The notes under the pieces were generated by a model that was given only the letters and a program-made list of their open reading frames with translations, was not told the origin of the DNA and searched no databases. Of a stretch of DNA of 63,775 nucleotides, positions 7,301 through 58,164 are shown piece by piece. The stretch covers positions 19,158,226-19,222,000 of the forward strand of contig CM097888.1 of the NCBI GenBank assembly GCA_044892525.1, read 5' to 3'. The position numbers were made by a program, and so were the translations under genes. Within the stretch, counting starts at the first letter, position 1. Each line of letters starts with the position of its first letter. Origin of the DNA: Schmidtea polychroa. Taxonomy: Eukaryota.

Positions 7301-8616
7301 ATTAAAAAATATGAAAAATAACATTTCACTATTGTGTGATTATGTTTGACTTATTGACTTAGAAATCAATTCAAGTATTAAATATTGTTTAAATTTACCT
7401 TCTCCATAAAAGTCTAAAATACAGGATTACAACCGTCCTTCGAGGTGTTTATCCAGTTCAAGGAAGGAGTAAGAAAAAAGTGAGTTACTCTGTTACGTAT
7501 GCGACAAATAGAAAATTATCGTAAAGAAGTTCACTAAAAGTGGTTACAAACAAATAAACTTATTGGTGTTATGAAGTGTTGTTAAAATGTACTAGGATTG
7601 CTGATAGATTTGCCATAAACTCTTCCCAAAAACATCTTCATGACTATTAGTTTTTTTATTATCAGTGTGCCATGGCAACAAACAAGTTGGTAAAAATCAA
7701 TCGGAAAATTAATGAGCAGGTAAGCTTTATTACCATAACTACTCTTCATTGCACTTTCACTTTCGGATTCATGACTGATGATAGAAAATCTTAAATTATT
7801 TCTTATTTTGATAATTTATTCATGGATCTCTTAAATATTCAGTAAAGTCTTAGTTTTCAAAAATTTGGGCGGTGTTGCACTTCAGCATTTAACATTATCT
7901 TAAAAAATTTGAGGGAAATTTGCCATTTAAATCTATTCATCGAAACCTGGTTCAAATTCATCATTATCGGTCTTTCATCAGAAAAATTCAAATATTTTTC
8001 TCTGAAAAAAAAGCCATTCATGATTCTTGAAATGTCAAACGTCCAAGACTTACACTCATGCTCAGTGAATAACCTGGATTTCAAAGGTAGTCGTCGAACG
8101 TCTGTCTACTAGCCACTTCTGTCCCGCCACTTTTTAACCTCAGACATGAATCGACTACTATTTCGACCACCACTTAATTGATTTATTTTGATAACATTTC
8201 CATAAAATTTTAACTTTACTATTTTGTACACATAAAACAGTTAATAAGATGTTCACAGTTACAGAGTGTGCTGGGGTAGAACTGATCTTCAGTTCAAGTA
8301 GCTGAAACGTGATTGAAAGGCGTCGGAACATCGCATGCAAAAATAACATCAAGTAGAGTCAAACTCAAACACGTCCAAACATCAACAGTTAGCTCAAATA
8401 ATTCAAAGAAAACTAAATAAAATAATGAACCTNNNNNNNNNNNNNNNNNNNNNNNNNNNNNNNNNNNNNNNNNNNNNNNNNNNNNNNNNNNNNNNNNNNN
8501 NNNNNNNNNNNNNNNNNNNNNNNNNNNNNNNNNNNNNNNNNNNNNNNNNNNNNNNNNNNNNNNNNNNNNNNNNNNNNNNNNNNNNNNNNNNNNNNNNNNN
8601 NNNNNNNNNNNNNNNN

Positions 8617-9575
8617 TATTAAATTATATAGTTCAGATTAAAAGGAAAGCCGAAATTGAATGGCGGTCAAACAGAGAAGCAATGGCAAAGAAAGATATGA
8701 TAAAAAAAAAGGGTACAATCAGACATGAAATGGGAAAATGCGCAAACCGGAGGAAGTGGAATAAAGTGAAAAGTTATCGAAATTGAAGCTGGAAAACGGG
8801 AGAGGGGTAGATTAAGGGATGGTGAAGAAGACAGTGAGCAAGAAATTGTTAGAAAATGTGTAGAAAAGGTCGTAAAACAGACAAATGTGGAAAAACGTAA
8901 AATATTAATTAATTAATTAATTGGCTAATGGGAAACCCGAGCTAATGGGAAGCCCGAGCCAATGGAGAACCCGAGCGATGAAGAAAACCCGAGCACGGCA
9001 ATTTGGAAGGGTAAACAAACGAGGAATTCAGAGGGCAATTATCCAAACAATCGGATAAACGAGGGTAAACAAAAGACAGGGAATTACGAAGAGGGTCAAC
9101 AAAAATAGTCAATTAGGGAATGATAGCTGAAGAAGTCAAAACCAATTAGGTCAAAAATGGGGCAATTACAACGATTATGGGAGTATATAAGGAAACTCAA
9201 AATTCACATAATCGGCGATAGCCTTAGGTAGGGATACGAAGAAACAGACGATAGGAGTTCGAGGAATAAAAATAAAAAGGAAAAAGGAATTATAAGAGGA
9301 ATTTAGGAGTCAGAAAGGAATATTAAAGGAGTTCGGATCAGAGAGCGGAATCAAACAAAAGGTGAAACCTAATTTTTAATCGTACAAGGCCGAGACCTTC
9401 CAGAGCGGAGTTCGATCTGAAATTGTGTAAGAATTGTGATTAACCAACAGTGTGATTAATTGTTGAGTTGTGAATTGTTATAAAACAAATATACGTTGGG
9501 AGTTTTGTTTATTGATTTTGGAACACGTGGAGTCAGAGTAACCAACGGTTGATTTTAATATCATAAAACCCAACA
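8617..9575 (+). repeat. 5' LTR (first ~21 bp hidden in the gap)
   Basis: Matches 23897-24855 with no difference seen; ends ...AAAACCCAACA; contains GCTAATGGGAAACCCGA-type tandem repeats and TATATAA at ~9184. Confidence 0.95.
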
Positions 9576-9582
9576 TATATTT

Positions 9583-9600
9583 TGGTGAGCCCGACGTGAT
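9583..9600 (+). promoter_or_regulatory. Primer-binding site, tRNA-Trp-like
   Basis: TGGTGAGCCCGACGTGAT differs by one base from the classic tRNA-Trp PBS TGGTGACCCCGACGTGAT. It lies 7 nt after the LTR and is identical at 35858-35875. Confidence 0.85.
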
Positions 9601-9725
9601 TAAACGTTGGTGGGCGAATATTGAAGGGTGAAAGAGGTGAAAAAAATTAAAGTAATAAGAAAATTGAAAATAATTGGAAATTGGAAGAGGTAGTAATTAT
9701 CGATTATTAATTTTAATATTTAGCC

Positions 9726-11618
9726 GTGAGTGAATACAATTTGAGGAACCGAAAAGTAAAGATGGCCAGAGAGAACGCTGAGATGATAGATTTTGCCAGT
9801 TGTCAAAAATTACCGGTGAATCAGTATGGAGGAGACCCGGTTGATTTTGCCGATTTCATGGGCGATTATTATATGTACGCTTCGGCCTATGGGTGGTCAC
9901 AAGCCATAATGGTACAAAGATTGCCACTCTATTTAAAAGGAGCCGCAAGAGAAGCTTGGCAGCAAGTGGATAAAAAGACAATTGGAGATGATTGGGCCAA
10001 ACTCAAGGATGCGATGGCAATGAAATTGGTGGGAGGCGATATAAAAAGAATAATGCGCCAAAAATTTTATGCCAGAGTACAAAATCCAAATGAATCGGTA
10101 AGTGAATTTGCATACCATTTAACGACTTTAGCAGACAAAGCCTTCGAAGCAAAGCCTGAACAAGTTGAGATGGTAAAACAAGTCAGAGAACTGCTTCAAG
10201 ATCAATTTATAAATGGAGCCCTTCCTGAAATTAAAAAAGCCCTATGCTACGTGGATTTCTCGAATTTTGATGAACTTGTGAAAAAAGCCATGAAAATTGA
10301 ATTGAACTTGAAAAGTACCAGAAAATCCGAAGTATTTGCTGCCAATGCCGATAAAAGAGAAAGGTCGGTAACTCCAGTTCGAGAACAATGAGTATCAAAG
10401 AAACCAACCCAAACAATCAGTTCGCCAAGACCAAGTAATAAAGTCGAAATTAATAAAGCAGTGTTTGGGAGTCAGGTGGCTGCGAGATCTAACAGCATAG
10501 TATGCGATCACTGCAAGAAAGTGGGACACTATCCAAATCAATGCTGGTTTAAATATGGAAGAGACCCCAGCCCCAGAAGAAAGTTTGTAGAAAGTAAGCC
10601 AATTATTAATGACTTGAAATGCTATAGATGTGGGAAAATGGGCCACATAAGCAGGAATTGTTTTTCAGGTACCCCATCACCATCAAGATCCCCGTCGCCC
10701 CAACGAGATAAAGTGAACACTAATGGACAAATTCAATGTCATTCATGCAAAGGTTATGGCCACATGGCTCGATCATGCCCCCGAAACTCAGAAAGATTTA
10801 GCCGACCAATATTGAGGAAATCTATTAGATTTCAAGATGAATCAGCAAATACTAATGTTGCATATGCTCAAAAGGAGGAGTTTAAAGAGAAAATGGAAAA
10901 TGAATTTCGGGAAATGAGACAGAAATTAAACAAGCTTATGTCAAAGTTCGAATCAGATGAGGAAGCAGATTCGTGTATGGTGTACGAAAAAGAGGCCGAT
11001 GCGGGCGGAAATCTTAGTGATAAAGCAAAAAATGATCTATCAAATGAAAAGGCTGTTCTGTTGATAAAGAAAATAGAAAGATGGTATACCGGAATGAAAA
11101 CAGACCTTCCGAGATTGAAAGAGTGGATTACCGAACTAACTCAAATCCAACTCAGCCAAAGAAAATTGAAAATTATTTTAAACATGTGTGTCAAAGTTTA
11201 CAATAAATACCAAGACGATGAAATTGCAAAACTAATAAAGACATTGGGAAAAGCACTGAGATCCACAGAGAGCTTGACCGACATATTCGTAGAAACTACA
11301 GACGGAAGTGGCAGAAACTTTCAATTTACGATTAAACCTAGCGGGCAAATAAAGGATTTGAGGGAGCTCATTATGTCGAAATATAAAGCAAATGAAGTGC
11401 AAATAAATTTCAAAAAACGGTCGATGGGTCAATTGGCGGATGGAGAATATTTGGTCGATTGTGGGCTGATTCCTGGATATAAAAATGAGGTAAAGATATT
11501 CAATGTAATTAATCAATCAAATTCAGACTTTAAAGGATGGAGGAAAAATTACAGGATTTACGGGATAGTCTGTATATTGGAGATGAAGACGAAATTAGTA
11601 ATTGTCTGGAACGGATGA
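9726..11618 (+). CDS. gag: Gag (capsid + 3 CCHC knuckles) plus ubiquitin-like domain 1; in-frame TGA at 10389-10391
   Basis: ORFs 9726-10391 and 10461-11618 are in the same frame. Knuckles: CDHCKKVGHYPNQC, CYRCGKMGHISRNC, CHSCKGYGHMARSC. The TGA aligns with Trp in the sister element. Confidence 0.9.
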
Positions 11619-14600
11619 TAAGTTCGGAGATGGATCAAAAAGCGAAGGAACAATTATTCGAGAGTATTTTACCGTATATTCATAAAACGACGAACTATCA
11701 GGCGAAATTGAAAGAAATAGTACGAAAAATGGGCCGTGAGCACCGAGAGTCAGATGAGATACCCAGATCATTGGTAATAGCCTTAAATATGAATGGGAAA
11801 GTGGAGTACTTACAAGAACACTGGAGCATGAAGGTGTCGAAAGTACGACGGAAAGCGGTGGAAATGTTGGGTAATGATGGAATTGTTATACTAACTTTCA
11901 AGGGAGTTGAGTTAGATGACGATGAATACTTAATCAATTGTGGGTGCAGTCCGAATTATATAAATAATATCGAAGCCAAGAAACAGGTGAGGGAGGTATC
12001 CGAGAGTATAATAACCCATTGGCCGAGAATTACAAAGGATACGAAGGATGATGACATGGAAATTAAAAAGGAATTGGCTGAAGAACCTAACGACTACGAG
12101 TTAGAAGAGCATGACCCAAAAGATGAAGGCATAAATGACGAGCAAGACGAAATTACGAGTGAGGAGGTGGACGAAAATGATTCAGTAAATCAGGAAACTA
12201 ACCATATAACCGACGAGCTACTAGTGAGTGAAAGAGTGAAAAGTGAGTCGAATTTTGTAGAAGCGGAAAGTAAATTGAATGGTCGAAAGCGGTGTAAAAT
12301 CGAATTAATGGGTGGAAACGAAGAGAACGATAGAATAGATTCCAATGTGGTTGAAAAAACGGATCTGAATAATATGTCTCAAACAGAATCAATTTTGAAA
12401 GGGTTAGTAACAGAATTATATGCACTGGAAGAAGGAAATAGTTGTGACGATGAACTCATACATCAGCTTGCAGCGGTATTAAAACGTCGGCTTCCAGTAG
12501 TACTAAAGGATAATACCATAGAGAGGGTATTTTGCGATGAAACAGTAGTCAAGAGATTAATCAGGAACGGTTTGAACAGAGACATGGTACTAACAGTCCT
12601 TGCTTATGTTGTTCTAGAAATTGGCGTATATGGATGCTTGGAATGCGATAAATCGGAAAAATGGATAGTAAAAGCCACCGAAGTGGCGAATACATATGTG
12701 ACGGGTTGGATTATGCGTAATGGAGGATGGGAAAACTTGGTGCAAAAGTCGGAGACTGCGACAACTGGAAGAAATTATGAGCCGAAAAGAGGGAAAATAA
12801 TGTTTCCATGGCTAACCATGTCTATTTTGGTGATTTTAGGAGTTATTAATACCACAACGTCCTTGGAAGCGTACGATTGCTCCCAGACAGAAATGGGAAA
12901 AGTATATTCGCTAGTAGATGTAGCAGAGTGTCCAGACGCATATCCGAGGAACTTAAAATGGGCAAATGAAGTGACATACCACGTATACCAAGAAGCGGGA
13001 TTTAGACGAGTGAAAGTGAGAGAATGCACAGCAAAAAGAACTACGTTTATATTCTACTGTGGCAAATGGAGCCATTCGTCATTAATCAAAATGCACTCAA
13101 TTCCAAGAGTAATAGAGGTGACACGGGAAAACTGTTTGGCAGCGTTCCAAACAGGAGAGCTGAAAATAAATTCAGAAATTAATTTGAAGGCTAAATTAAA
13201 CTATAAAATTCGTGAAACTATAGCAGTTAAGGGGATAATCAAGGCAAATGGCGATTGCGAGGGTGAAGCGTATAAAGTAGGACAAACAGTCATTGATAAA
13301 ACCGTCGTGATAGAAGAATATGAAACCGAACTAAGGTATTTTGATGGATCATTCGATGACGATACGGGAAAATTGCAAACCCATCCATTTTGTAACATGA
13401 GGGAGAAAAGCTGCAACACAGGTGAGTCAATTCTGGTATATGAAGTTGATACCAAAAAATGCAATTTAGCACATTTAAAATCAATGCCTTTTAAAGAGAT
13501 AACGGGAGAGCAGATCCAAGAGAGACCAGAAAGCACAGTGCTAAACTCAGTCATGAATATGACACTTAGAATCACACCGATACGCTTGAAGAAAACGCCA
13601 ACGGTTTTAATGGCAATGTCCCGAAACGATGGGATGAGATTCTTAAGGAAGAGCGTAAATACGAAGTGTGGACAAACTGTTTATGAGACCAATTATAAAG
13701 GAATTTATTTATCCAAGAAAGTTGTCGAAGAAGCTCAAACAAAATTGTACGCAGAGGAAATTAAACTAACGAACTATTTCAATAATAAGATTGACTATTT
13801 ATTTCATTTTAGCCAAGATACAATTGAAAGTGTGTACAGGGAAATCATACTAAATGATTGCAAGTTAAACAAAGAAATCCTGCGAAACAGAATGGCGATG
13901 GCTATCACGAACCAGAATCTAGTTGCTCCAATGTTGATTTCGGAGAATGGAGTATTCGCTCGAATGCTTGGTGAAGCCTTATATAGTTATAAATGCAAGG
14001 CAGTACCTATTAAATTGATGAAATACAATCAATGCACAAATGAACTGCCTGTGAATGTTAATGGGAAGCTACGATTCATGGAGCCGGTGACACGAATTTT
14101 ATTGGAGGAGGACGCGAAACCGAGAGTGTTGCAGTGCAACAGATTATTGGCTCCACTATACCGCCTGACGCCCGAATCATGGATTGCACTACCTGATCAT
14201 AGAGGGGTGAAAGTCCCAGAAAAATTGGAGTTGACAAAATTAGAATATCTAATTAACTTTACATCGCTAGACAGCATGACTCAAAGTGGAATGTATTCAA
14301 GTGATGATATTGAAGCAGCACGCAGAAACTTATTATTCTCCTCGAAAAAGGAAAGGGTAATAACGAAAATAGTAGACACTATTCTCCCGAGTGGAACTGG
14401 AAAAGTGAATTACGACTATTTATTAACAGTGGATCATTACAAAAAGGCGACGTATAATACGATGAAAAAGATTTGGGGAAAATTTATGTTTATCGGGCAA
14501 GCCTGCGCGGGATTAATCGGAATATATGTGATCGGAATCATGATTAAAGTAATAGTTTCGCAGGTGTTATCAACACACAGATTATACACTATTACAGGTC

Positions 14601-16699
14601 TGTCGTGGAAGTTGGTTATTGGATGTATACCATTGTTAGCTAGATTTTTTATAACACATCATCAATATCGAGAGTTGGAAACGTTGAAAGCACAATTAAC
14701 GAAAAAGAGAAAGGTAAGTTATATTGATGTAACCACTACTTCTAATGAGGACAAAAGTGACAACGAGAACATCGGGGAATCGGCACCGTCATACGAGGAG
14801 GAACGGAATCAAGCCGATACATGGAAAAGTTATCAACTAATAAAAGAATCATTTTCTAATGATGGCAACCAGGATACATTCACTAGATTATGCATACCAA
14901 AATCATTTATACAACCACTACCAGCATATCCGGTAGATAAATTGATAGAAATGAAGCCAGTTGAGAACATTGCACTACAGTGTGAGAGAATCGATCCAAC
15001 GAGCGCAGAAATTGAAAGAAGAAATAGGTTAGGCTTACCTGGTAATTACGTACTAATGGCGTTAGCGAAAATTGGTAAACAACCACGAATAGTAATTCAA
15101 ATAAACAAAAACAGAGTTGAAGCCGTGGTGGATTCTGGATCGAGTCATACAATTATATCAGAAGAAATACTGTCGATGGAAGAGAAAAAACGAATCCAAC
15201 CATCCGATAGTGTAATCAGATCGTTATCCAGAAATGTGTTGCCAGTAATCGGAGAAATCGAAGTTGAACTGATAATCGGTGATAGAAGAATTAGACATAA
15301 CGTGCAAATTATGGAGAAAAGTCCTGTATTGTGCTTGATTGGAATGGATGTATTAGAACAATTAGACGGAATCTCACTTGATTTCAAAACTGGAAACCTG
15401 ATAGTGGGGAAAATAGGTGAAGTCATTCGTAATTCAGGAGAGGTGTTTCTAAACCAATCATTAACTATCCCACCTCAAACAGAAGTGGTATATTATGCTA
15501 GCGCGACTAGTGTCGATAATGATGAATTCATATTCGAACCCAGTCAAACGTTAATTGAAAAATACGAGACCCCAATGTGCGATGAAATCGTGAAAGTGGA
15601 AAACCAATTGCTACCAGTGCGAATAGCGAATTATGGTGATAAATCAATACGATTAAAGCCACAGACAAGATTGGGAAAACTGTCTCACATGTCGGTAGAA
15701 ACAGAAAAGAAAATTCCCAGAAACGTAAAAATTTATAAGGAACCCGAAGTTGTGAGCAAGGACCTGACCGAAAAACAAAAACAGGAATTTACAAAATTGT
15801 TGAGGAGATATCGAGATATTTTTGCGAAACATGAATACGACTTGGGGCTAACAAATATAATAGAGCACGAAATCCCGTTGCTGGATGAAACTCCGGTTAA
15901 AATAAAACCGTACAGAATCCCTTACATCCATCAAACCGAGAGTGATCGACAAATCAGGGCGATGAAAGAGTTTGGGATAATCAGAGACAGCTCCTCACCA
16001 TTTTCTTCGTCTATTGTAATAGTCAAGAAAAAGGACGGAGATTTAAGGTTTTGTGTCGATTATAGAAAACTGAATCAAGTAACAAGAAAGGATACTTATC
16101 CAATTCCCGTACCTCAAGAAATGTTTGATCAGATGGGAGAAGCCCAGTATTTTACGGTCATCGATTTGAACAAAGGCTATAATCAATTTAAAGTAAAAAA
16201 AGAAGATAGAAGGAAAACGGCATTTTCCGATGGTAAAGGCTTATATGAGTTCAATGTCTTGCCGTTTGGCTTAACGGGAGCCCCAGCTACATTCCAAAGA
16301 GGTATGAATTTTGTGTTGAGAGGCATCAGACATGCGCTAGTTTATATTGATGATATAATTATTTTTTCGAATAGCTTTGACGAGCATCTTGATGATGTGG
16401 AAACAGTATTTAAGCGACTTAAAAGCGCAAAATTGAAAATAAAACCATCAAAATGTGAATGGGGAAAATCTGAAGTAATATATGTTGGTCATATTATATC
16501 AAGAAGAGGTCTGCAAACTAATCCGGACAATATTAAAAAGGTGGAAGCGTATCCAATTCCAAAGAACGCGGACGAGGTGAGGCCATTTCTGGGATTAGCA
16601 AGCTATTATAGAAAGTTTATAAAGAATTTCTCGCATATCGCTCAGCCATTAAATTCGCTGTTAAAGAAAAATAATAAGTTTACATGGAGCAAAACCTAA
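11537..16699 (+). CDS. Polyprotein: Ubl2, acidic linker, Bcl-2-like domain, signal helix, chuvirus-like glycoprotein, aspartic protease, RT
   Basis: WIMRNGGWENLV (BH2-like); AYDC...SL..V.EC...YCGKWSH; TM segment WGKFMFIGQACAGLIGIYVIG; VVDSGS protease motif (15131); RFCVDYRKLN, LPFGL, VYIDD (16343). Confidence 0.9.
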   Translation: MEEKLQDLRDSLYIGDEDEISNCLERMISSEMDQKAKEQLFESILPYIHKTTNYQAKLKEIVRKMGREHRESDEIPRSLVIALNMNGKVEYLQEHWSMKVSKVRRKAVEMLGNDGIVILTFKGVELDDDEYLINCGCSPNYINNIEAKKQVREVSESIITHWPRITKDTKDDDMEIKKELAEEPNDYELEEHDPKDEGINDEQDEITSEEVDENDSVNQETNHITDELLVSERVKSESNFVEAESKLNGRKRCKIELMGGNEENDRIDSNVVEKTDLNNMSQTESILKGLVTELYALEEGNSCDDELIHQLAAVLKRRLPVVLKDNTIERVFCDETVVKRLIRNGLNRDMVLTVLAYVVLEIGVYGCLECDKSEKWIVKATEVANTYVTGWIMRNGGWENLVQKSETATTGRNYEPKRGKIMFPWLTMSILVILGVINTTTSLEAYDCSQTEMGKVYSLVDVAECPDAYPRNLKWANEVTYHVYQEAGFRRVKVRECTAKRTTFIFYCGKWSHSSLIKMHSIPRVIEVTRENCLAAFQTGELKINSEINLKAKLNYKIRETIAVKGIIKANGDCEGEAYKVGQTVIDKTVVIEEYETELRYFDGSFDDDTGKLQTHPFCNMREKSCNTGESILVYEVDTKKCNLAHLKSMPFKEITGEQIQERPESTVLNSVMNMTLRITPIRLKKTPTVLMAMSRNDGMRFLRKSVNTKCGQTVYETNYKGIYLSKKVVEEAQTKLYAEEIKLTNYFNNKIDYLFHFSQDTIESVYREIILNDCKLNKEILRNRMAMAITNQNLVAPMLISENGVFARMLGEALYSYKCKAVPIKLMKYNQCTNELPVNVNGKLRFMEPVTRILLEEDAKPRVLQCNRLLAPLYRLTPESWIALPDHRGVKVPEKLELTKLEYLINFTSLDSMTQSGMYSSDDIEAARRNLLFSSKKERVITKIVDTILPSGTGKVNYDYLLTVDHYKKATYNTMKKIWGKFMFIGQACAGLIGIYVIGIMIKVIVSQVLSTHRLYTITGLSWKLVIGCIPLLARFFITHHQYRELETLKAQLTKKRKVSYIDVTTTSNEDKSDNENIGESAPSYEEERNQADTWKSYQLIKESFSNDGNQDTFTRLCIPKSFIQPLPAYPVDKLIEMKPVENIALQCERIDPTSAEIERRNRLGLPGNYVLMALAKIGKQPRIVIQINKNRVEAVVDSGSSHTIISEEILSMEEKKRIQPSDSVIRSLSRNVLPVIGEIEVELIIGDRRIRHNVQIMEKSPVLCLIGMDVLEQLDGISLDFKTGNLIVGKIGEVIRNSGEVFLNQSLTIPPQTEVVYYASATSVDNDEFIFEPSQTLIEKYETPMCDEIVKVENQLLPVRIANYGDKSIRLKPQTRLGKLSHMSVETEKKIPRNVKIYKEPEVVSKDLTEKQKQEFTKLLRRYRDIFAKHEYDLGLTNIIEHEIPLLDETPVKIKPYRIPYIHQTESDRQIRAMKEFGIIRDSSSPFSSSIVIVKKKDGDLRFCVDYRKLNQVTRKDTYPIPVPQEMFDQMGEAQYFTVIDLNKGYNQFKVKKEDRRKTAFSDGKGLYEFNVLPFGLTGAPATFQRGMNFVLRGIRHALVYIDDIIIFSNSFDEHLDDVETVFKRLKSAKLKIKPSKCEWGKSEVIYVGHIISRRGLQTNPDNIKKVEAYPIPKNADEVRPFLGLASYYRKFIKNFSHIAQPLNSLLKKNNKFTWSKT

Positions 16700-18148
16700 C
16701 AATCAGCTTTTGACACGTTAAAGCAGAAATTAGTAATGGCACCTATTTTGCGATGCCCAGATTTTACGAAATCTTTCCTATTAATGACCGATGCCAGTAA
16801 CGTGGCATTGGGAGCGGTGTTAGGTCAGCAAGTGGACGGTGAAAAGGATCACGTAATAGCGTATGCAAGCAGATCTTTAAGGCCACATGAAAAAAATTAT
16901 TCAACAATCGAAAAAGAGACATTAGCGCTAGTTTACGGCATTACTACGTTTAGACAATATTTGCTGGGACGAAAATTCGTTGTATATACTGATCACAACC
17001 CCCTTCAGTGGTTAATGAAGCATAGAGATTCAACTAGTAAATTAATCAGATGGTCAATTGCTCTCCAAGAGTATGATTTCGAAATAAAATATAGAGCAGG
17101 AAAAGCGAATGCAAATGCCGATGCAATGTCAAGAATTCCCAATGGGCTTAGTGGAGAGGATACTGGTACAGAAAAGGTGGAAGGCACAATATTTGCAGCA
17201 ATCAAAGCCGTTAATAATGTGACTGAATTACAAAACGAACAGAAAAAGGATAACCGACTTAAACATTTCTTTGAACAAGCAATCACGGTCAGAAAGGAGA
17301 AAGATTTAAAACAGGTAATGAGTGAAAATCATAAATACATAATTCACGAGGGAATATTAAAATGCGTGAAAAACGACGAGATATTGATTATGATCCCGGA
17401 AAAACAGAGAGATTCACTGTTGATGCAATATCATGATGGAGCCCTAGGAGGACACTTGTCCGCTAGAAAAACCTTATCAAGACTGAAAATGAAGTACTAT
17501 TGGCCAATGATGGAAAAAGACGTAAAAGATTGGTGCAAAAATTGTAAGATATGTATAACTCGAAGAAATACAGGCAATAAAATTAAAGTACCTTTAAAAC
17601 CAATGTCTGTTCCAACCGCACCAATGGAGATGACTGCAATGGACATTGTTGGGCCGTTACCTGAAACAATAAAAGGAAATAAATGCATCGTAGTATTTTG
17701 TGATTATTTGACAAGATGGCCGGAAGCTTACGCCATACCAAATCAAAAGGCTGATACAGTAGCAAAAATATTTGTAGAGAACATTATTTTCCGATATGGT
17801 ACCCCAAAAAAGTTATTAACTGATCAAGGTAAAAATTTCCAAAGCGAATTATTTAAATCAATCACCGAGTTATTCGGAATCTGGAAGTTGAATACTTCGC
17901 CCTACCATCCACAAACCGATGGTTTAGTCGAGAGATTTAATGGCACATTGATAAATATGATTTCGTCGTATGTAAATAGCAAACAGAGAGATTGTGACGA
18001 CTACATAAAGCCTTGTTTGTTTGCATATAGAAATGCTGTCAACCCAAGTACGGGAGAGACACCTTTTTATTTAATGTACTTAAGACGAAACAACATGCCG
18101 ATAGATCTAAACTTCCGTTACTCAATATATGGAAGTACCCGAGTATAA
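16700..18148 (+). CDS. pol: RNase H and integrase, continuing pol past a premature TAA at 16697-16699
   Basis: TDASNVALGAVL, EKETLAL, YTDHNPL; HHCC zinc finger; MDIVGPL...TDQG...PYHPQTDGLVERFN. Confidence 0.95.
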   Translation, partial: QSAFDTLKQKLVMAPILRCPDFTKSFLLMTDASNVALGAVLGQQVDGEKDHVIAYASRSLRPHEKNYSTIEKETLALVYGITTFRQYLLGRKFVVYTDHNPLQWLMKHRDSTSKLIRWSIALQEYDFEIKYRAGKANANADAMSRIPNGLSGEDTGTEKVEGTIFAAIKAVNNVTELQNEQKKDNRLKHFFEQAITVRKEKDLKQVMSENHKYIIHEGILKCVKNDEILIMIPEKQRDSLLMQYHDGALGGHLSARKTLSRLKMKYYWPMMEKDVKDWCKNCKICITRRNTGNKIKVPLKPMSVPTAPMEMTAMDIVGPLPETIKGNKCIVVFCDYLTRWPEAYAIPNQKADTVAKIFVENIIFRYGTPKKLLTDQGKNFQSELFKSITELFGIWKLNTSPYHPQTDGLVERFNGTLINMISSYVNSKQRDCDDYIKPCLFAYRNAVNPSTGETPFYLMYLRRNNMPIDLNFRYSIYGSTRV

Positions 18149-18278
18149 TGCGATAATGCAAGAGAGGGTACAGTCGGTTTGGACAAAAGCCGGATTAACA
18201 ATAAAACATAATCAAGAGAAGTAAAAAGAAGCCTACGATAAGAAAACACGACCTCATGGAATAAAAATTGGAGATTTA

Positions 18279-19698
18279 GTGTATCTTAACAGACCAGAAC
18301 CACTCAAAGGTATGTCTCCAAAGTTACAGAGACCATTTAAAGTGCCATATAAAGTGTGTGATACAACCGAAACAAATTTGAAGTTATTACCGTTTAGGAG
18401 TAAAAAGGCAAATCCTATAATAGTTCATGCCAATCGTTGTAAATTGGTCCCGGAAAATGACGAAGAAAGATATCCATTACGATCGAAACGAAATGAAGAG
18501 AAGGCGGATACAAAAATTCAACAAAAATTCACCAAAAATCCAGTTCCAATCAGTTATCTTAACAGAGTGCTATTCACAACAGTCGTGCTAATGATGATGA
18601 CAAGGGTAAAAGGGATGAGAATGGATTTACCATATGCGATAACAAAAATACCCTTATGGGACAAGATCGATATTTATTCCACTTTTACAAATATTGTTTG
18701 GACTTATCAGTGCGAAATAATGGAGCAAATAGAAATTAGCAACGTGTTAGACCCGTTCACACCTTTCATTATTTTGAATTATGACAGAAATACGTATGCG
18801 GCACGAGAATTAAAAGTTAACTTCAAGTATCCATGGATCATAAAGCAGAATGAATCAGATTCGCTTGAAAAGTTTAATAGTCAAATTCGAATTATAATAC
18901 AAACTAACGAATTATGGAATACCGTGGAAATTGAGCCGATAATGAATGGTATAGATGTGTATTGGGTAGCCTTAGAAAGAGTAAAGGTGCAGGTCATATT
19001 TCAAAATTTTGTGGATATTCTAAACATGCGAAAGGCTTACACTCGGTATTACAATCTCAAAATGAACTCAAATTATACAATAACGGCTAATTACTACGAA
19101 AATGCGATGTATGATAATGGCACAATAATGAAAAATAAATGGACATTGTTTCAAACAGAGAATCAAATAATTCCCCTTAAGAATGTATCGAATCGTGTGA
19201 TTCTTGGAGTTCAAAACGGGTCAATAACAATTTATCGAAAATCCCCAGATGACGAAAGAGTGATTATCAGTAATGGAAAAAAAATTATCGTTTTGTTGGA
19301 TGCCGGTAAAAGCTATTTTTCATTAATTAGTTCTAATTTAGAATATGATTACCTGATAAAAATCAAATATCAACAACGGATATTCGAGCCATATCGATGG
19401 CAAACCGTTCTGGTGGAAACGAGAAGGGTACCAGGCCTGAAATCTGATGTAACCACAGCACGTCCAATTACTACAAAACAATACCAAGTTAACAATCGTG
19501 TAATAAATAAGCGGACTCAAATTGAGACTGATCAAGCTCTAATTATATGTGAATATTTGATATACCTCATCATTGACAGCATTTCTCATATTATCTCTGG
19601 TGTTCATAATAATAACAATCATTCTGTGCAAAAATAGACAGCATATTATAACTGATTTACGACTCGAGCCTTTCAGTGTGATCGAAACCACTGTATAA
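18279..19698 (+). CDS. Integrase C-terminus (GPY/F-like) fused to a signal peptide, ectodomain and TM helix (putative second membrane protein)
   Basis: SPKLQRPFKVPYKV, then hydrophobic VLFTTVVLMMMTRVKG. A shifted frame at 19564-19698 reads TSSLTAFLILSLVFIIITIILCKNR...TTV*. Confidence 0.7.
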
Positions 19699-19909
19699 AA
19701 TTACATTATAAAAATTGCATGCGTGTAAATAAATCTTATAAAACTAGTATGATTATAGATTAATAATAACATAAATTAGTATTTTGGTTGATCGGACTTC
19801 GCTATGGTGTGCTTGGCCTTGCGCGATAAAGAGTGTTTAAGAAAACTTTAATTATATTTAACTTCAGGAAGCCCAAGAGGAAGAGTCAATCAAAGAGTGT
19901 CGAAACTCA

Positions 19910-20113
19910 ATGAAAGAAATGAGAAGAAAAATGAAAGCAATGGAGAGGAAAATTGACGACTTGGAACTAGAGGATATGATTTGCAAAAGAAAGCTGGAAA
20001 GGATGGAAATTCTCCTGTTCCAATACGAAGCGGAAGTCGTGTTGCTAAGAATGCAGATACAGGGAAATGAATGCCCGACCGATGAGGAAAGAGAGATGGA
20101 TGAGTTAGAATAA
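19910..20113 (+). CDS. Small charged coiled-coil ORF inside the element
   Basis: 67 aa, heptad-like (MKEMRRKMKAMERKIDDLELE...); purine-rich like the element's coding region; the frame is open upstream to 19868. Confidence 0.4.
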   Translation: MKEMRRKMKAMERKIDDLELEDMICKRKLERMEILLFQYEAEVVLLRMQIQGNECPTDEEREMDELE

Positions 20114-20699
20114 TTTAATGATTAATAAAATTTACAATTTAAAACCTCACTTTTCGTCCTCGAAGTAGTAAAAGAGAAAGGCTAAACGATAATAACATTT
20201 ACATTAATAAAACTAAATGTTAAAAGAGAATAAATGAATAGAACAAAATAGTCAATAAACAAAATTTATTGATAAGTTAGTCCTCTAGCAGGACAAAACT
20301 CTCGATGTGGGAGTCGTCCACTACACCCCGAGGAGGTCTTTTTTCGAACCTCTTGAACCTGTGGGACAAGTCCACACAGGCAAAGGTACGTTTTAGACCC
20401 GAGCGAGGTGGCGCGGGTACAGGAAGCCTAAGTAAATCCTACAATAATTTTAATTATATAGAAACGAAACTAACCACATGAGGGGATCAAATTTTACTAA
20501 TGAGTCCTAAATTAAAGAATAAAATTAAATTAAGCAAAAAAAAAAATTTAATTAATTCCAACATAAAACAAAAGTAAAGTAAAAAACAGCATAAGTGAAA
20601 AGGCTAAAGCTGTGAGGAAAATTTATATTTATAAATAACTGGCAAATAAAAAACCAACATAAAATCTGTCGCTGTACTCATCATCGACCGTCGATATCC

Positions 20700-23110
20700 G
20701 GACATACAATCATAAAAGCTGAGATTGGATATGGGCGGGGATTTCTTTCATCATACCTGTTTCAAAATTTTACATTTCCTATAATCTTTAAAAATCTAAT
20801 AAATTAATACTTCAAGCATTCCACCAACTTAACTGTGTGAAAAAAAAATATTTTTTTTTGTTTCAGAAACATATACTAACACAATTCCTATAATAAAAAA
20901 ATCAAGCACACTTGCGATGAAATTTATCGTTTCAAAATATAACAGATTTTTCATATACATAAATTATCAAAATTTTTTACAAAACTTCCAAACTTTGTAT
21001 TTCAACTAAGATTTTTATTTTTGTAAAAATTTTCTTTTAAAAATATTGTGTATGGGAAAAAAAATATACAAAAATATCACCGTAACGCATTAGATAAAAA
21101 CCTGAATCACAATAAATTAAATCTTTAATAGTATAAATTAAATTAACTTATAATAAAAGTGCGTGTGGCATGGACAAAAATTGACATTAAATTAGAGCCA
21201 TGTCGTTAAATAACGGTTTATAATGTAGGTGGATAGAAATTATTACTGAGAGAATAGAAAGAAAGAATAACCGCACACAAACACGATTCACAAAATATCT
21301 ATAATAAAAAATACTCACAATAGGACATTGAATAAGATCAAAACTCCACACAATCAAAACTATTAAAATGTTATGTGCAAAATTCTGTTAAGTTATAATA
21401 AAGTTTTCACCAAAAAGCGGAAAAGTTATTCGGCAAAATCGAAGGAAATTAAATTGCATTTAAAAAAAATAATCTGAATTAGATAATGAAACAATAAATA
21501 CCTTTTTTTACTTTTATTTCGAAATGCTAATAAATTTTTTTTTAAAAAAAAAAAAAAATCTTTTATAAATATTCAATAAATTAAAAACCTGAAATTACAT
21601 ACAAAGTATTATAGATGAAACGAAAAGATAAATTAATTATATAAAATAAATTAAATTCTTATTCATTGTCATAACAAAGGCGATTTGGTCCAAACGATAT
21701 TGGGTTCACAGCAACGTGGAGGGCAAGCGACTGACGATTTGATTATTATTATTATTTCAATTTACTAAATTGAAAATAATCAACAATATATTAAAAATAT
21801 AAAATTAACCTCTAATATACTTTGACTCTGATCTGAATGTTCTACACTTGCTGAATAACTTTTGTATAAACCTCCATTTTTGGATGTAACTGAAACGAAA
21901 TAAATTATAAATTAAATAAATTCGTAATAATTAAATAATACAATAATTAGCAACACTTCTCAGGCTGTTTTATGTCGGAAACGTTAATAGTTGGCATACT
22001 CCTACTGGAAAACTTATTAAAAACGTAATTTGTTTAATAACTCCTTAATTGAAAACATTTTTAGAAACTTCTTCAGTACTTACATGAATTTTCTTATATT
22101 TATTACATTTAAAATGTAAAATACTTTATTTAAATTATTTTTTAAGAAAAATAATAATAATAATAATAATTAATAAAATAAAAATAATAAAATTAATATA
22201 AAAAAATAAAAATAATAAATAAAATAAGATAATGATATAAGTGATAAAAACGAAAGATCATGAATATGTGAAGGCAAATAAAAATCCATCAAATAAGCAC
22301 ACACGCATGCATCTAACACAACGGCGATTAGCGATATCAGTATATGAGCATGTCTGAGAAGTAGCATCATCAACACACAGCCTTAACAGTAAGGAATTCT
22401 GAAAATAATAAATAAAATAAGATAATGATATAAGCGATAAAAACGAAAAATCAATCAAAAATCAAAATCATAAATAATGTAAAAATAAATAAACAAAAAA
22501 ATAATGAAAATAATATTAATATTAATTATTATAATTATAAGTAGACTGAATACGAGAAAGGTCTTACCGATTCGTAGACACTGTTAAGTAAGCAAGCTGC
22601 TGCTCCCATTGCTGGTTCATAGTTTTTAACACATCCCACAAGAACCCAATAAGCAGATTTAAATCGTTCTCCTTTAGTATTTGAAATAGTTCCTTTAGCA
22701 ATCCAACATATGTGTCAATTAAAGTTTCCTGAAAATCTCCAGCAGATAGAAATGCCATTTTGAAAATATTGTGTAGTTGCTCAAACGGTAATATCTCACT
22801 GGAGAACTCAGGTATCTGACTGTAGAAATACAGCACCGTTTCAATGTCCTGAATTATTACGGATTTTTAGAGAATTTAAGTTAGATACAAGGCCTATTTA
22901 TACCTAAATTAAGATTAATAAATTAACAAACAAATAATTACCATTTCAAGAGGCAATTGATTATAATTGCCAACATGGGAGGCAGAACATTGTTACTCCC
23001 GGAATCGACATTGATAGCAAGAATCGACATTGAGAGCAAATATAATTTAGACATGATTGATCTGGTAAACATTGAGGGATAAAATTATCTTGCCGTCTCC
23101 AAACTGCAAT
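20700..23110 (-). pseudogene. Intron-containing host-like gene of unknown identity, antisense within the LTR element
   Basis: Exon-like blocks with AG and GT borders, e.g. 22565-22846 DIETVLYFYSQIPEF...YLTVSTNR/gtaag and 22265-22400. Further blocks at ~21810-22040 and ~20700-20760. Confidence 0.45.
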
Positions 23111-23224
23111 TTAATATTAAATTTAAAATTGTATTGTTTATTTACAAGGAAATAAATCAAACTTGTTGACATTATTATATTTATAAACACAGCGTGGAAT
23201 TAATATTGAATCTTTCGTTAAACT

Positions 23225-23490
23225 ATGGAAGAATTAGGAAAGTATATTCTTGATAAATCACTAATTTCCAATAAAGTATGCCGTTACGATGATGATTGTA
23301 TCGATCGACTTAATCATGTTTATACAACTACGCTTATAGGAATTTGTTTTTTTTTATGTTCACAAGGTAACTAGTTGGGAAACCTATCACTTGTTGGCTA
23401 CAGACGGAATTTTCTGACTCTCAAGTGGCATATGCGGAACATGTATGTTGAGTCATGAGTACTTACTACGTGAAATTGGATGAAATTTAA
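23225..23490 (+). pseudogene. inx: Innexin N-terminal fragment (frameshift and TGA at a conserved Trp)
   Basis: YDDDCIDRLNHVYTT...(fs)LVGKPITCWLQTEFSDSQVAYAEHVC*VMSTYYV matches the innexin DDDxxDRLN / VGxPIxCW / CWxxxTY signature. Confidence 0.88.
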
Positions 23491-23841
23491 TTTACTATTG
23501 AACGTAAATAAATTAAATATAAATAAAGTAAATAATTAACTTTTGAAAATGAAATGCTATGAAACACTTAAAAACTATTTAAATGAGAAAATTCACGAAT
23601 AAAGTAAAATCAGATTTTAAATAAAATGCTATGAAACACTTGATTGAAAATTTCAAAAAACTATTTAAATGAGAAAATTCACGAATAAATTAAAATCAGA
23701 TTTTTAAACATAAGAAAAAAAAATGTTGAATTTTAATAAAATGAACAAGACTCGAATGGGACTGAATTGTCGGTATGTCAATAGGTCACCTAATTTTCAG
23801 AAAATATAATAATATATTTTAAATTGAATAAGCATCACATA

Positions 23842-23872
23842 TTTCGAGGACGAAATTTTTTTTAAGGGAGAG
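23842..23872 (+). promoter_or_regulatory. Polypurine tract with upstream TTTCGAGGACGAAA motif
   Basis: TTTCGAGGACGAAATTTTTTTTAAGGGAGAG lies 3 nt before the TGTTG of the 3' LTR, as is typical for Gypsy elements. Confidence 0.75.
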
Positions 23873-23875
23873 CTA

Positions 23876-24855
23876 TGTTGAGGTTTGAAAATAAATTATT
23901 AAATTATATAGTTCAGATTAAAAGGAAAGCCGAAATTGAATGGCGGTCAAACAGAGAAGCAATGGCAAAGAAAGATATGATAAAAAAAAAGGGTACAATC
24001 AGACATGAAATGGGAAAATGCGCAAACCGGAGGAAGTGGAATAAAGTGAAAAGTTATCGAAATTGAAGCTGGAAAACGGGAGAGGGGTAGATTAAGGGAT
24101 GGTGAAGAAGACAGTGAGCAAGAAATTGTTAGAAAATGTGTAGAAAAGGTCGTAAAACAGACAAATGTGGAAAAACGTAAAATATTAATTAATTAATTAA
24201 TTGGCTAATGGGAAACCCGAGCTAATGGGAAGCCCGAGCCAATGGAGAACCCGAGCGATGAAGAAAACCCGAGCACGGCAATTTGGAAGGGTAAACAAAC
24301 GAGGAATTCAGAGGGCAATTATCCAAACAATCGGATAAACGAGGGTAAACAAAAGACAGGGAATTACGAAGAGGGTCAACAAAAATAGTCAATTAGGGAA
24401 TGATAGCTGAAGAAGTCAAAACCAATTAGGTCAAAAATGGGGCAATTACAACGATTATGGGAGTATATAAGGAAACTCAAAATTCACATAATCGGCGATA
24501 GCCTTAGGTAGGGATACGAAGAAACAGACGATAGGAGTTCGAGGAATAAAAATAAAAAGGAAAAAGGAATTATAAGAGGAATTTAGGAGTCAGAAAGGAA
24601 TATTAAAGGAGTTCGGATCAGAGAGCGGAATCAAACAAAAGGTGAAACCTAATTTTTAATCGTACAAGGCCGAGACCTTCCAGAGCGGAGTTCGATCTGA
24701 AATTGTGTAAGAATTGTGATTAACCAACAGTGTGATTAATTGTTGAGTTGTGAATTGTTATAAAACAAATATACGTTGGGAGTTTTGTTTATTGATTTTG
24801 GAACACGTGGAGTCAGAGTAACCAACGGTTGATTTTAATATCATAAAACCCAACA
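23876..24855 (+). repeat. 3' LTR (980 bp)
   Basis: Terminal inverted repeat TGTTG...CAACA; matches the 5' LTR. Confidence 0.95.
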
Positions 24856-24887
24856 TTATTATTTGCTACGGGTAGGAGAACATAGAA

Positions 24888-25688
24888 CAGTGGCGTAGCT
24901 ACCATATAACAAGAGTAAGCAATGCATAGGGGCCACAAGACAGGGGGGCCTTTTTCCAAGTTTCCTTAATTTTTCTTCAGAAAACAATGTCAAACAACGG
25001 CACGGTCGGCACCAATCAACAGTGACCTTCAAATGATCGATTTGTGGTTTTATGTAATAAAGCTCCACTGTTTTGTTGCATTAAGTACATTATTTACCTG
25101 CATTTTACTTATTTATGCAATCCCCTCTGCCTCTTTCTCGCTAATAATACTGTATAAGCAAGCAACTTTAGATATCTAAGTAAATCGCCCATTCATATAG
25201 GGGTCGAAAAAATTGTTTTGCTTGTGGGCTATACACTTTTGTCCCTGATACATTACTATCATTTTATAACGCTTTATACTGTTATATTGTATATTGAGCT
25301 CAAATTATTTAATTAAATCGTCTTTTCAAAGAGGACCCAAAAAAATGTTTTGTCTGCGTCGCAAAACTCCCCTGTAACTATAAGCCCTTTTTTCAATTTA
25401 CACTCCCCTCCCCCTTAAAAAAACTCTTGGGTAGGCCTACGCGACTGGTCTCATACCGTAAAAAATAAATAAGGTATTCCATCAAAATTCCGAGAGTCAC
25501 GAAGTGTTCAGTCGCAGGAAAAGTTTGGGAAAACCTGGTCTAATCCAATTGTGCTTCCAAAGGGGGCCAAAAAATTTTTCCCTGCGGCGCTATGGTGCTC
25601 CGCACTTATTTCACTTGTGTATGCAGTATAGGGGGGTGGCATTTATGACTCGTTCCATAGGGGCCCAAAATTTCTAGCTACGCAACTG
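24888..25688. mobile_element. Non-autonomous hAT element
   Basis: TIRs CAGTGGCGTAGCTA / TAGCTACGCAACTG; perfect 8-bp TSD ACATAGAA; internal GGG(G)CCCAAAA-type repeats. Confidence 0.92.
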
Positions 25689-26280
25689 ACATAGAAAATT
25701 GAATAGACAAATAAACCAAAATGAAAGGTAAAATTTCATAGTAAAATCAAAAAAAGGAAACTAGATTTTTCTTTGCTTATCTCTGAATTATTCTATCGTT
25801 TTATTTGTTGTTTTTTTCATAATTTGCATTTTAAAATTAAACATATTCCAATTTACAAACATAATAATATAAAGGAAAACTTTCCTTTTAATTAAACATA
25901 TTAAAAAAGCATCTTAAATGCAGAAATTAAAGTAAATACAAAGCTGCTTACAAATAAATCATATATAATCAATTAACAACTCCTTTTTTATAAAAAATTT
26001 AACATATTCTAAATACAAAATCATTTAAAAAAATAATTTTTACTAAGCTAATTACCAAAATATATGAAAATAGTGGTGAATTAAGATAAAATTCGCAAAA
26101 GTAATCAATGGTTATTTATACTCTAAAGAAATTTGAAAATAGATAAAATGAATCTAAAAAAAAGTTCTTATAATAAAAAAAATCAAATAAAGAATAATAT
26201 TATCAATAATTAATTTAATAATTATTGTTTAAATATTATTAATTATAATATAAAATATCAATTTTAGAATACATTTTATT

Positions 26281-27087
26281 ATGTCAGAGATATTGTATGA
26301 AAATTTTCGAAATGATGGTCGACGCCCAAATAATATTAGATCAATAACATCTCAAATAGGTGTGCATGCCAATTTTATTGATGATGGTTACGTATGCTTA
26401 GAACAAGGTAATACGAAAGTTATTGCGTCGATATATGGACCACGGGAATGTCGTAATCATTCTGATGCTAAGCATGATTCTGCTATTATTAGTTGTAAGT
26501 ATTTCAAGGGTCATACTGCCAATTTCAATGCTGGCCGTAGACATGGAAAACGAGATAATATAAGTGATTTGAATGCTGATTGTGTTAAAGTGTGTTTTTT
26601 ATACAATTATAATTTTATAAATTTAAATTAGAGTATAATGGAAAAGGTGATTGAGCTTCATTGGTATGGTGAAACTCAGATTGACATCAATATACTCGTT
26701 CTACAATCTGATGGTTCTGAGTTAGCCGTAGTTATTAACGCTGTGTCCCTAGCATTAATGGATGCTGGTATACGCATGAAAGATTTTGTCACTGCTAGTA
26801 CTGTCGGATTATTTGATCAAACAATTCTTGCGGATTTAAATGGTTTTGAAGAAAATCAGTTTTCTTTACCTTCTTTAACCATGGTTTTGCTCCCTAATAC
26901 TCCAAGCAATGAACGGTTCACTAAAATGTTTCCAAATAATATCGATCACATTAGTCAAGTAAATACACTTTATGTAGCTGCGGAAAGTGTTTGTGAAACG
27001 GTTTATAAAGAATTAAATAAACAAATCAAATTATATGTTGCAGCAAAATTGGATAAACAGCATGCTATTGAAGGCCGTTCGAATTAA
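26281..27087 (+). CDS. EXOSC4: Exosome complex component RRP41 (2 exons, 42-nt intron at 26590-26631)
   Basis: RNase PH motifs RNDGRRPN, LEQGNTKVIASIYGPRE, QIDINILVLQSDGS, INAVSLALMDAGI. Confidence 0.93.
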
Positions 27088-33910: not shown

Positions 33911-35857
33911 TGCAAAATATCACTAATTAATAATATATAATAAAAAAATGGTTTGTTAAAAAATAATTAGTTAAAACAAGTTTAAAATACTTCAAACTGA
34001 CGTATAAGTTTTGTTTAAAATGTAAGCAACGAGTATTGTAAAATTAATTTAATATTATTATAAATTTTGAATTAAAATTTTCTTAAAATTCTAGAAAAAA
34101 TCTATTATTAATAGAAAACAAATTTTTAAAAATAAATAAAGTTTGAGTCAATTTGAATTTTCTAGAAGTATCTCTTAAAATTATATAGGGAATTGTTTTG
34201 TAACAGTTATTGATGTATTTTTTAATTTATTTAACTTGAATTAAAAATATAATATTAACAAAAATGTATTGTGAGATTTTGATTGTTGATCTACCCGGGC
34301 TCAACAAAGGGGAGTGTCATTGTAGGTCAACTAGGACAATCATAGTCACCGCGAAATACGCTTAGTCAAATAATACGCGGTCATAAACAATCATGGTTCT
34401 TGTAAAGTTATTATATTCTGTTGTTGTGGTTGGTGAAATTTCTGACCCTTATTTGTATGTTCACCAATATATAAGTTGTTTTTTTTTATTGTGTTCTAAT
34501 TAAATTCATTATCCTCAAAAAGTTCTTAAGGTATGTTTAATAAACTATGGCTATGTTTCACTTAATTTATATTCAAACATTTTAGATGTGGTATTGTATG
34601 AACAGGTTTTAATAGATTAATGTATGATTCCTGATGACTTATAATCGTTTGAGGATAGAAAGTTTGTAAAGGCATAGTTGAGAAAGTAATTATAATAAGG
34701 GACCTGCGTAAATCGGACATATATCTTCTAACAATAGTCCGTGAACCCAGTAGAGTGCTCGACAATTACAGTGCAAGTAGTGCGCTCACTTTTTGCGAGC
34801 ACTCACCCTCTTGATACAGTACCAACGTTGATCATTCAACGGGTATCAAGCGGTAAACAATGTTGTATCTTGGGTTACGCTGGTAACAGCACTAAAGAGC
34901 AAAATATTTCATCATCAGTAACCCACCAAGTATTAGAAAATGCCAAAAGCAATTACGAAAGGCAAGAATCCGGAAATCCGAGAAAAATCAATAAATGGGA
35001 AAATCATCGAAATCGAATGGGAAAACGGGACAGGTATAGATTAGCTAATGGTCAACAAGATGATGATTAGGGATTTATCAGAAAATGGTTAGGAAGGGTC
35101 GAAAAAACATTCAAATGTGTGAAAACAGAAAACGTTAATTAATTAATTAATTGGCTAATGGAAAACCCGAGCTAATGGGAAACCCGAGCCAATGGAGAAC
35201 CCGAGAGATAAAGGAAACCCGAGCTGGGTAAACAAGAAGAAAAGCAAACAGAAGGAAGATTTGGGCCCATTAGCTTGACACAATGATTAATGGGAAAAGA
35301 GTAAGGAGAAGATAGCGCGCGTAGGAAGACCGGTAGGGCCATTAATTATCTGGATTCGTTGGACCATTATGGGTGACAGCCGAAGCAAATACGTAGGAGC
35401 AAATGTCAAACGAAAGATTGGCTCGGCAATAACCATTTGTCATCCCGATTTCGAGGAGTATATAAGGAAAGGGAAAATCAGAGAAAATCGGCATTTTGCC
35501 TCAGCTAGGGTTCGAAGAATCAGAGCGTAGGAAAAGTTGGTAAACGAATTAGGGAAAGTAGGGAAAAGAAGAAATAGAATAAAGAGTACTTAAAGGTGAA
35601 AAGGAATCAAACCAAACAGAAACCGAGGAAGACGTGAGTCGAGAGAATCTAAAGGACTAAAAGGTGAATATTATTTGTTTGCAAAGCATCAACGCCGAGC
35701 GGAGAATCGTATAAAACTTTGATTATTAATTGTAGCGTGGTGATAAATTGTGAACCTGTTGTTTCAATATACGTTGGGTCGTTCATTGTTTTGATTTAAA
35801 GAACACTAGGAGTCAGAGAGAACCGACTTGAAATAATCCAAAACCCAACATATATTC

Positions 35858-35875
35858 TGGTGAGCCCGACGTGAT
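35858..35875 (+). promoter_or_regulatory. Primer-binding site, tRNA-Trp-like
   Basis: TGGTGAGCCCGACGTGAT, 7 nt after the LTR end. Confidence 0.85.
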
Positions 35876-36142
35876 TGCAAGTCGACGGAAAATTATTGAA
35901 AGTTAGTGAAAAAAAAATAATTGTTGAAAAAAATAGTACCGACGTGATAGAAAGTCGGCGGTGTATTAAAAATTAGTGGAAAAGTTAATTATTGGAAAAG
36001 TACTACAGACCTGAGTGAAAGTTGGCTTTGAATTTTGAAAATAGTGTTAACGAGAGAGATATAGAAGGCTATTATTGGGAGATTTACAAGAAGTTGAAAA
36101 GTAATTTTAAATTATTGTTTAACGTTTGAAGTTTAGCTCAAA

Positions 36143-57501: not shown

Positions 57502-57589
57502 TAAATGAATAAATGAGTAAATCGGTGAGAGAAATTTTTCTACACGCCAACCACCACTATAGAGAACGTATCTCAGTGGTGTTTGGTGT

Positions 57590-58160: not shown

Positions 58161-58164
58161 CTCA

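Follow-up and report, generated by a model that had tools for sequence, protein, structure and literature searches.

Host-gene fragments in the 3' non-coding region of a Burro-like retrotransposon of Schmidtea polychroa

The element and its 3' end

The DNA analysed here, referred to as the window, is a 63.8-kb stretch of the Schmidtea polychroa genome (63,775 nucleotides; GenBank assembly GCA_044892525.1, contig CM097888.1, positions 19,158,226 to 19,222,000 of the forward strand). It contains a Ty3/gypsy long terminal repeat (LTR) retrotransposon of ~16.2 kb, in which an LTR pair, a primer-binding site (PBS), a polypurine tract (PPT) and the coding order gag, then protease, reverse transcriptase (RT), RNase H and integrase are all present. 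Close to its 3' end, the element encloses a segment (20481-23850, ~3.36 kb) that holds fragments of host genes. An initial annotation had recognized host-like DNA inside the LTR pair, and this view was upheld: the segment is host-derived, out of place, antisense and intron-bearing, and it lies in the element's own 3' end. The element resembles Burro/GYPSM1, giant gypsy-like LTR retrotransposons of dugesiid planarians that exceed 30 kb (Grohme et al. 2018, as cited in PMC6431247). Its main features are as follows, with open reading frame abbreviated as ORF.

8617..9575, plus strand: 5' LTR; its first ~20 bases lie inside an N gap (8433-8616), so that the target-site duplication (TSD) is unreadable
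9583..9599, plus strand: PBS; the same PBS is found in a sister element at 35858
9717..19637, plus strand: Burro-like polyprotein region with gag, zinc knuckles, a weak Bcl-2-like stretch, a Monjiviricetes-type fusion glycoprotein, protease, RT, RNase H, integrase and a C-terminal ORF part
20149..20169, plus strand: small hairpin, left bracket of the segment; its core (20152-20164) and the pre-PPT core are exact reverse complements
20276..20425, minus strand: GC-rich structured block (GC 0.53) at the left edge of the segment; folding z -4.8 on the minus strand (0 of 200 shuffles) and z -2.3 on the plus strand
23841..23872, plus strand: pre-PPT hairpin (23841-23856, 4-nt loop), T run and PPT (23864-23872)
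23876..24855, plus strand: 3' LTR, 980 bp, TG...CA

No N occurs between 8617 and the 3' LTR, and the features follow each other in the order PBS, integrase, 3' untranslated region (UTR), segment, pre-PPT hairpin, T run, PPT and LTR. The proper pre-PPT motif, PPT and 3' LTR reported initially at the right end of the segment were thus all found again. According to the excerpt of PMC10085805, a T-rich box located before the PPT is known to serve in priming.

The segment is bracketed by two hairpins located 3.7 kb apart. At 20152-20164 lies an exact 13-nt complement of the pre-PPT core (23843-23855); 8e-5 such matches would be expected in the 14.3-kb interior, and the duplex between the two is computed at -25.0 kcal/mol vs -16.3 at the next best site. 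A few other 13-16-nt inverted matches exist, nearly all of them AT-rich. Each hairpin has a 4-nt loop, the loops are complementary, and the pair could refold into a 16-bp helix; a kissing or long-range pairing signal is possible. Judged from this one copy, the 3' UTR on the left and the PPT end on the right would be parts of a single element design, with the cargo lying in between. Neither terminal inverted repeats (TIR) nor a TSD were found around the segment: beyond the 13-nt hairpin complement, the matches are of at most 12 nt and AT-only or nearly so. The structured block 20276-20425 had no Rfam or tRNA match; it may represent a cis element or mark where an antisense RNA ends. When viral contigs were searched with the pre-PPT pattern, two loci without RT were obtained and discarded. 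The literature consulted (titles and abstract openings) described no hairpin partner of a pre-PPT motif.

In the polyprotein region, the fusion glycoprotein (PF24664, Pfam E 1.4e-88) is encoded upstream of protease and RT in the same ORF. The Bcl-2-like stretch (~12530-12750) is weak: its best PDB match is Bcl-2 at E 0.027, all 60 matches shown belong to the Bcl-2 family, and no Pfam Bcl-2 match was obtained. Two ubiquitin-like-looking stretches, seen by eye and without Pfam support, accompany it between gag and env (11250-12010), as in Burro. Past the integrase tail, ~345 codons continue in the same frame (18600-19637) and end with a hydrophobic stretch. This C-terminal part (18600-19634) matched nothing in Pfam or the ESM Atlas, and a second surface-type accessory domain is possible. 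Further downstream, the element 3' region holds a plus-strand ORF of 67 residues (19910-20113), coiled-coil-like and acidic at its end, with no Pfam match. The PBS, which we take to be of the tRNA-Trp type, is separated from the LTR end by 7 nt both in the element (9576-9583) and in its sister (~35851-35858), which is wider than the usual few bases. The sister (34990-37860) is a 5' half only, with a partial LTR, the same PBS and a gag ~78-80% identical; it ends before the Bcl-2-like stretch and has no 3' end for comparison. An RT search of viral contigs returned two loci at 31-32%.

Five breaks interrupt the coding region: stops at 10389, 16697 and 18222, and frame changes near 11534-11615 and 18145, one of these frame changes being possibly a natural ORF boundary. 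The two LTRs align with 0 mismatches over 960 positions. With lesion fractions assumed to be 0.08-0.25, the five body breaks would lead one to expect ~4-12 differences between the LTRs, and there are none; LTR identity was therefore rejected as a clock. The LTRs may have been collapsed in the assembly or homogenised, or the lineage may have moved in trans.

Gene fragments and exon-like blocks of the segment

The features recognized within the segment are listed below.

20655..22004, minus strand: exon-like blocks with acceptors at 21957-22004, 21810-21889, 21660-21730, 21319-21473 and 20655-20756; gaps of 67 and 79 nt separate the first three
22258..22398, minus strand: exon-like block E3, behind an acceptor; one frame stays open until a stop at the end of the block; a short direct repeat flanks the block
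22568..22848, minus strand: single internal exon of host protein P0001 (841 aa, karyopherin-beta-like), residues 295-388; 281 nt between a TTCAG acceptor and a GTAAGA donor
22942..23103, minus strand: exon-like block E1, with acceptor and GT donor; contains a 19-nt tandem duplication
23225..23487, plus strand: innexin pseudogene fragment, residues 1-92 of a cellular innexin; Pfam PF00876, E 2e-8
23547..23707, strand not assigned: short tandem duplications with units of ~72-86 nt

The innexin piece starts at an ATG (23225) and stands head-to-head with the minus-strand blocks, which begin at 23103, as the initial annotation had described. It matches a cluster of three cellular proteins, and 76 of the 81 compared residues are identical to one of them (P0003). 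The analogy first drawn with ichnovirus vinnexins was accordingly abandoned: the closest relatives are cellular, and no intact viral innexin ORF is present. That the innexin is now broken was corroborated. Its lesions comprise a five-residue in-frame deletion after the start, a frameshift near 23350 and stops at 23368 and 23449. The fragment ends near residue 92, part-way through the first exon of the parent, since the related exon in L001 extends to ~residue 138. Stops and frameshifts are about twentyfold denser here (3 in 87 codons) than in the element (5 in 3288 codons), with a binomial P of ~0.0009 in a test chosen after seeing the data. Either the piece was already dead when it was captured, or it was never maintained as a functional gene in this place. 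Among the 71 columns invariant across the three cellular innexins, it differs at 3, of which 2 are stops; this is more than neutral decay usually gives, with small numbers and noticed after the fact. No innexin sequence past ~residue 100 was found anywhere in the window at E<2. A solo LTR inserted in an innexin gene was rejected, because the rest of the gene does not lie beyond the LTR; this agrees with the initial remark that the second LTR is not simply a solo LTR.

On the minus strand, one block could be assigned to a parent. P0001, a protein encoded on a 3.4-kb contig, was the sole match among 55 candidates (E 9e-37), with identities of 88% across the first 78 residues of the alignment and 74% across the final 23; the alignment uses two frames. 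The match starts at the base following the TTCAG acceptor and ends at the GTAAGA donor; its 281 nt correspond to 94 codons less one base, with one frameshift near 22630. The rest of P0001 had no match in the window below E 4. Taken together, the match limits at the splice sites and the lack of any other P0001 match in the window indicate a single internal exon that was moved with both of its splice sites and is now frameshifted. The identity of P0001 as a karyopherin-beta is a lead only. Its ESM Atlas feature score to TNPO3/IPO13/exportin clusters is 0.96, but the recognition value (1762) is below threshold; neither Pfam nor a PDB sequence search gave a match, and the 8000 scored candidates contained no relative of P0001 but itself. 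The structural model is all-helical, with a mean predicted local distance difference test score (pLDDT) of 46.7.

Since no other exon of either identified parent gene occurs in the 63.8-kb window, the segment is out of place. Host-derived partial gene sequence is hence found between two LTRs and away from its parent locus, as in LTR-transduced fragments.

None of the other minus-strand blocks (E1, E3 and those further left) is a P0001 exon. This includes E1, which is not the upstream exon of P0001. E1, E7, E8 and E9 have stops in all three frames. Searching E1-E3 in one frame against 1.84 billion representatives returned one unrelated repeat protein (P0005), in a search of limited sensitivity that also missed P0001. 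The blocks at 20655..22004 had no Pfam match, and the three minus-strand frames of the left part, searched by sequence against the PDB, gave nothing below E 0.35. The single antisense spliced gene proposed initially thus gave way to a different picture: the minus-strand blocks form a patchwork and not one coherent gene. The whole cargo, located between the element 3' UTR and the pre-PPT hairpin, likewise reads as a patchwork, made of pieces of at least two identified host genes and of exon-like blocks. It makes no working innexin or karyopherin.

The exon/intron-like organization of the minus strand was confirmed by counts of splice signals. TTCAG-type acceptors number 12 vs 3.5 expected (reached in 0 of 200 block shuffles) and GTRARW donors 16 vs 9.1 (reached in 4 of 200), and the outcome was the same with 500 whole-segment shuffles. 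The plus strand shows no such excess (acceptors 2 vs 1.5, donors 10 vs 10.9), and there is no acceptor excess in the element body or the right flank. Blocks E1-E6 have a GC content of 0.31-0.45, as compared with 0.13-0.22 for the intervening gaps. For the segment as a whole, the value is 0.256. This agrees with the AT-richness noted initially, but is close to that of the flanks (0.249 and 0.261), so that the segment is host-like (element body, 0.372) and not unusually AT-rich.

Short direct repeats and tandem duplications occur inside the segment. A six-frame Pfam scan of 18 readings around it gave the innexin as the sole pass; three weak matches (E 0.02-0.07) were ignored. Rfam (19600-25000, E<=1) and ARAGORN each returned 0 matches. 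Over the interval from pol to the 3' LTR, the longest minus-strand stop-to-stop frame is 100 aa and contains no domain, so no long antisense ORF is found there.

Origin of the segment

We propose that the segment is dead passenger cargo, which entered the 3' non-coding region of a compact Burro-like element and was carried through replication; we place the chances of this reading at about even. Illegitimate recombination in the course of replication would have brought the pieces in. The antisense, intron-bearing part would derive from an RNA that read host DNA on its non-coding strand, by read-through from an inserted copy, followed by a template switch back to the element 3' end. Because a spliced mRNA cannot yield an exon with both splice sites, this part must come from genomic DNA or from non-coding-strand RNA; in an RNA that reads the non-coding strand, the splice sites would survive, since antisense introns are not removed from the genomic RNA. 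The innexin piece is in sense orientation and intron-free, starts at the 5' end of the gene and stops in mid-exon. A switch onto an mRNA and the same genomic capture would fit it equally. Afterwards, the cargo would have been carried without selection for protein, and decayed. Transduction is thus what we infer from the arrangement. Its elements have precedents in the excerpts of published work: template switching allows LTR elements to acquire partial copies of a single gene or of several (PMC5131818), gene capture by LTR elements has been described downstream of pol (PMC6431247), and captured genes are in many instances pseudogenes (PMC3726574).

Several observations weigh against this proposal. 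Neither a second copy with the segment nor an empty copy was seen, the sister element in the 63.8-kb window (34990-37860) being a 5' half, and LTR identity cannot date the cargo. The GC skew of the segment (-0.007) is host-like and not element-like (+0.17). Its A skew was considered as a sign of passage through RT and rejected, since it lies in the non-exon DNA, as expected from T-rich minus-strand introns. The plus strand carries more AATAAA motifs than expected (34 vs 20.1, reached in 0 of 200 shuffles), and the genomic RNA could be cut short as a result. In favour of the proposal, 6 of the 15 listed sequencing runs, from two studies, hold 0.39-0.64 of the segment's sequence words (shares of 0.00-0.18 in the 9 other runs were not used as evidence). 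Much of the segment DNA therefore exists in raw data, but word shares say nothing on junctions; no RNA run is among the runs listed as holding segment words.

Introns and both orientations would also be explained, without RNA, by a one-off insertion into this copy at the DNA level, through break repair, ectopic recombination or an unrecognised nested element. The inserted host DNA was then possibly already mosaic and pseudogenised, and no reverse transcription took place. We consider this explanation somewhat unlikely. The host-like composition and the many plus-strand AATAAA speak for it, as does the persistence of all element ORFs, unlike the Drosophila cases in the excerpt of PMC5131818. 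On the other hand, the borders display neither TIR nor TSD, nor a Helitron-type end by eye, the donor must already have been a patchwork, and the internal direct repeats and tandem duplications fit RT slippage, if weakly. A distinctly less probable alternative is a standing, family-wide antisense transcription unit with a Retand-like layout, spliced, running from near the 3' LTR to block 20276-20425 and equipped with recruited host exons, a decayed copy of which would be seen here. The excess of splice sites is indeed one-sided across the whole segment, the P0001 exon kept both splice sites though its neighbours come from elsewhere, and a minus-strand AATAAA (20265) follows the block that folds best on that strand; plants are known to have elements whose long pol-to-LTR regions contain antisense ORFs, as stated in the excerpt of PMC11963269. 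Such a unit is hard to reconcile with the stops in all frames of E1, E7, E8 and E9, with the frameshift in the P0001 exon, with the lack of any Pfam domain besides innexin, and with the single unrelated protein returned for E1-E3 by a search that missed P0001 as well.

An assembly misjoin or a chance juxtaposition, which would place a copy truncated at its 3' end next to ordinary host DNA and this next to the PPT-LTR end of a different copy, is in our view very unlikely. Scaffold gaps do occur beside repeats, one of them abutting the 5' LTR, the LTRs are identical despite the five body breaks, and the best runs hold just 0.61-0.64 of the segment's words. However, both segment borders lie outside the LTR in gap-free sequence, the two identified genes occur as isolated fragments and so set the segment apart from ordinary host DNA, and two truncations would be needed that kept exactly the two complementary hairpins. 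We also attach little probability to a more elaborate scheme, in which a Burro-related lineage would possess a 3' cargo bay closed by the two complementary hairpins, through kissing or a 16-bp helix that loops the cargo out of the genomic RNA, and would be transcribed antisense as a spliced RNA trapping host exons. If this scheme were true, host exons with working splice sites would be spread round the genome, and pieces of nuclear-transport and gap-junction genes would be fed into the PIWI-interacting RNA (piRNA) system.

If dead passenger cargo is the right reading, this is one more LTR element that carries defunct pieces of host genes, and it belongs to a lineage whose capture of domains is already known. 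Less usual are the single antisense exon with both splice sites and the two complementary hairpins that enclose the cargo. Should the segment recur in other copies, it would offer a traceable early stage of the process by which the Burro polyproteins acquired their captured domains, and a route of exon shuffling in which the splice sites come along. In that case, small RNAs directed at host genes might also arise from it; according to the excerpt of PMC8532177, LTR elements are targets of PIWI in planarians.

Known systems and the rest of the window

In position and origin, the segment would work like known LTR gene-fragment capture. The element was compared with Burro by means of Burro's description. 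Both have a gag with CCHC knuckles and a mononegavirus-type env in frame between gag and protease, followed by protease, RT, RNase H and integrase; the weak Bcl-2-like stretch before env may correspond to the BCL2-like region of Burro. The present element is shorter (~16.2 kb vs >30 kb) and has no BIR, ankyrin, MATH or dUTPase Pfam match. Moreover, the captured domains of Burro are inside the polyprotein or accessory ORFs, whereas intron-bearing host fragments stand before the PPT here.

The remaining systems are compared from excerpts of the respective papers. LTR-mediated retroposition in animals (Tan et al. 2016, PMC5131818) likewise leaves partial gene copies, from more than one parent, inside an LTR pair. 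Those cases were found via exon-exon junctions and replace part of the ORFs, whereas here the ORFs remain and most of the cargo is antisense with splice sites. The plant gypsy elements Retand (PMC11963269) share a long region from pol to the 3' LTR, which measures ~5.5 kb from the integrase core in our case, as well as tandem repeats and antisense content. In nearly all Retand clusters, however, conserved antisense ORFs exceed 600 bp, in contrast with the broken host exons of the present element. Ichnovirus vinnexins (PMC7379367) are also innexin-derived sequences in a virus-like genome, but they form multi-member families of DNA polydnaviruses (17 and 6 genes), whereas the piece described here covers 92 residues, is thrice broken and is near-identical to a cellular innexin. 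Pack-MULEs and Helitrons (PMC6431247) similarly carry a patchwork of fragments from several genes with introns kept; unlike in Pack-MULE/Pack-TIR insertion, there is no TIR or TSD at the segment borders. Titles and abstract openings mentioned no innexin or karyopherin fragment in an LTR element, and 3' regions of this kind might already be displayed in the annotations of Burro found in Repbase or in supplements.

Several other sequences were observed in the window. An 801-bp element (24888-25688) with terminal inverted repeats and a perfect 8-bp TSD, hAT-like by TSD length, lies 32 bp to the right of the 3' LTR. It is followed at 26254-27087 by an intron-less RNase PH sequence (exosome subunit-like) with one in-frame stop, a possible processed pseudogene. 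Transposon remains comprise a hAT dimerisation domain (40645-41247), an unrelated integrase (44088-44969) and a piece of a DDE_1 endonuclease (50097-50495). Finally, an array of ~1.1-1.3-kb units with 76-81% identity, the last of them inverted, occupies 54676-58170.

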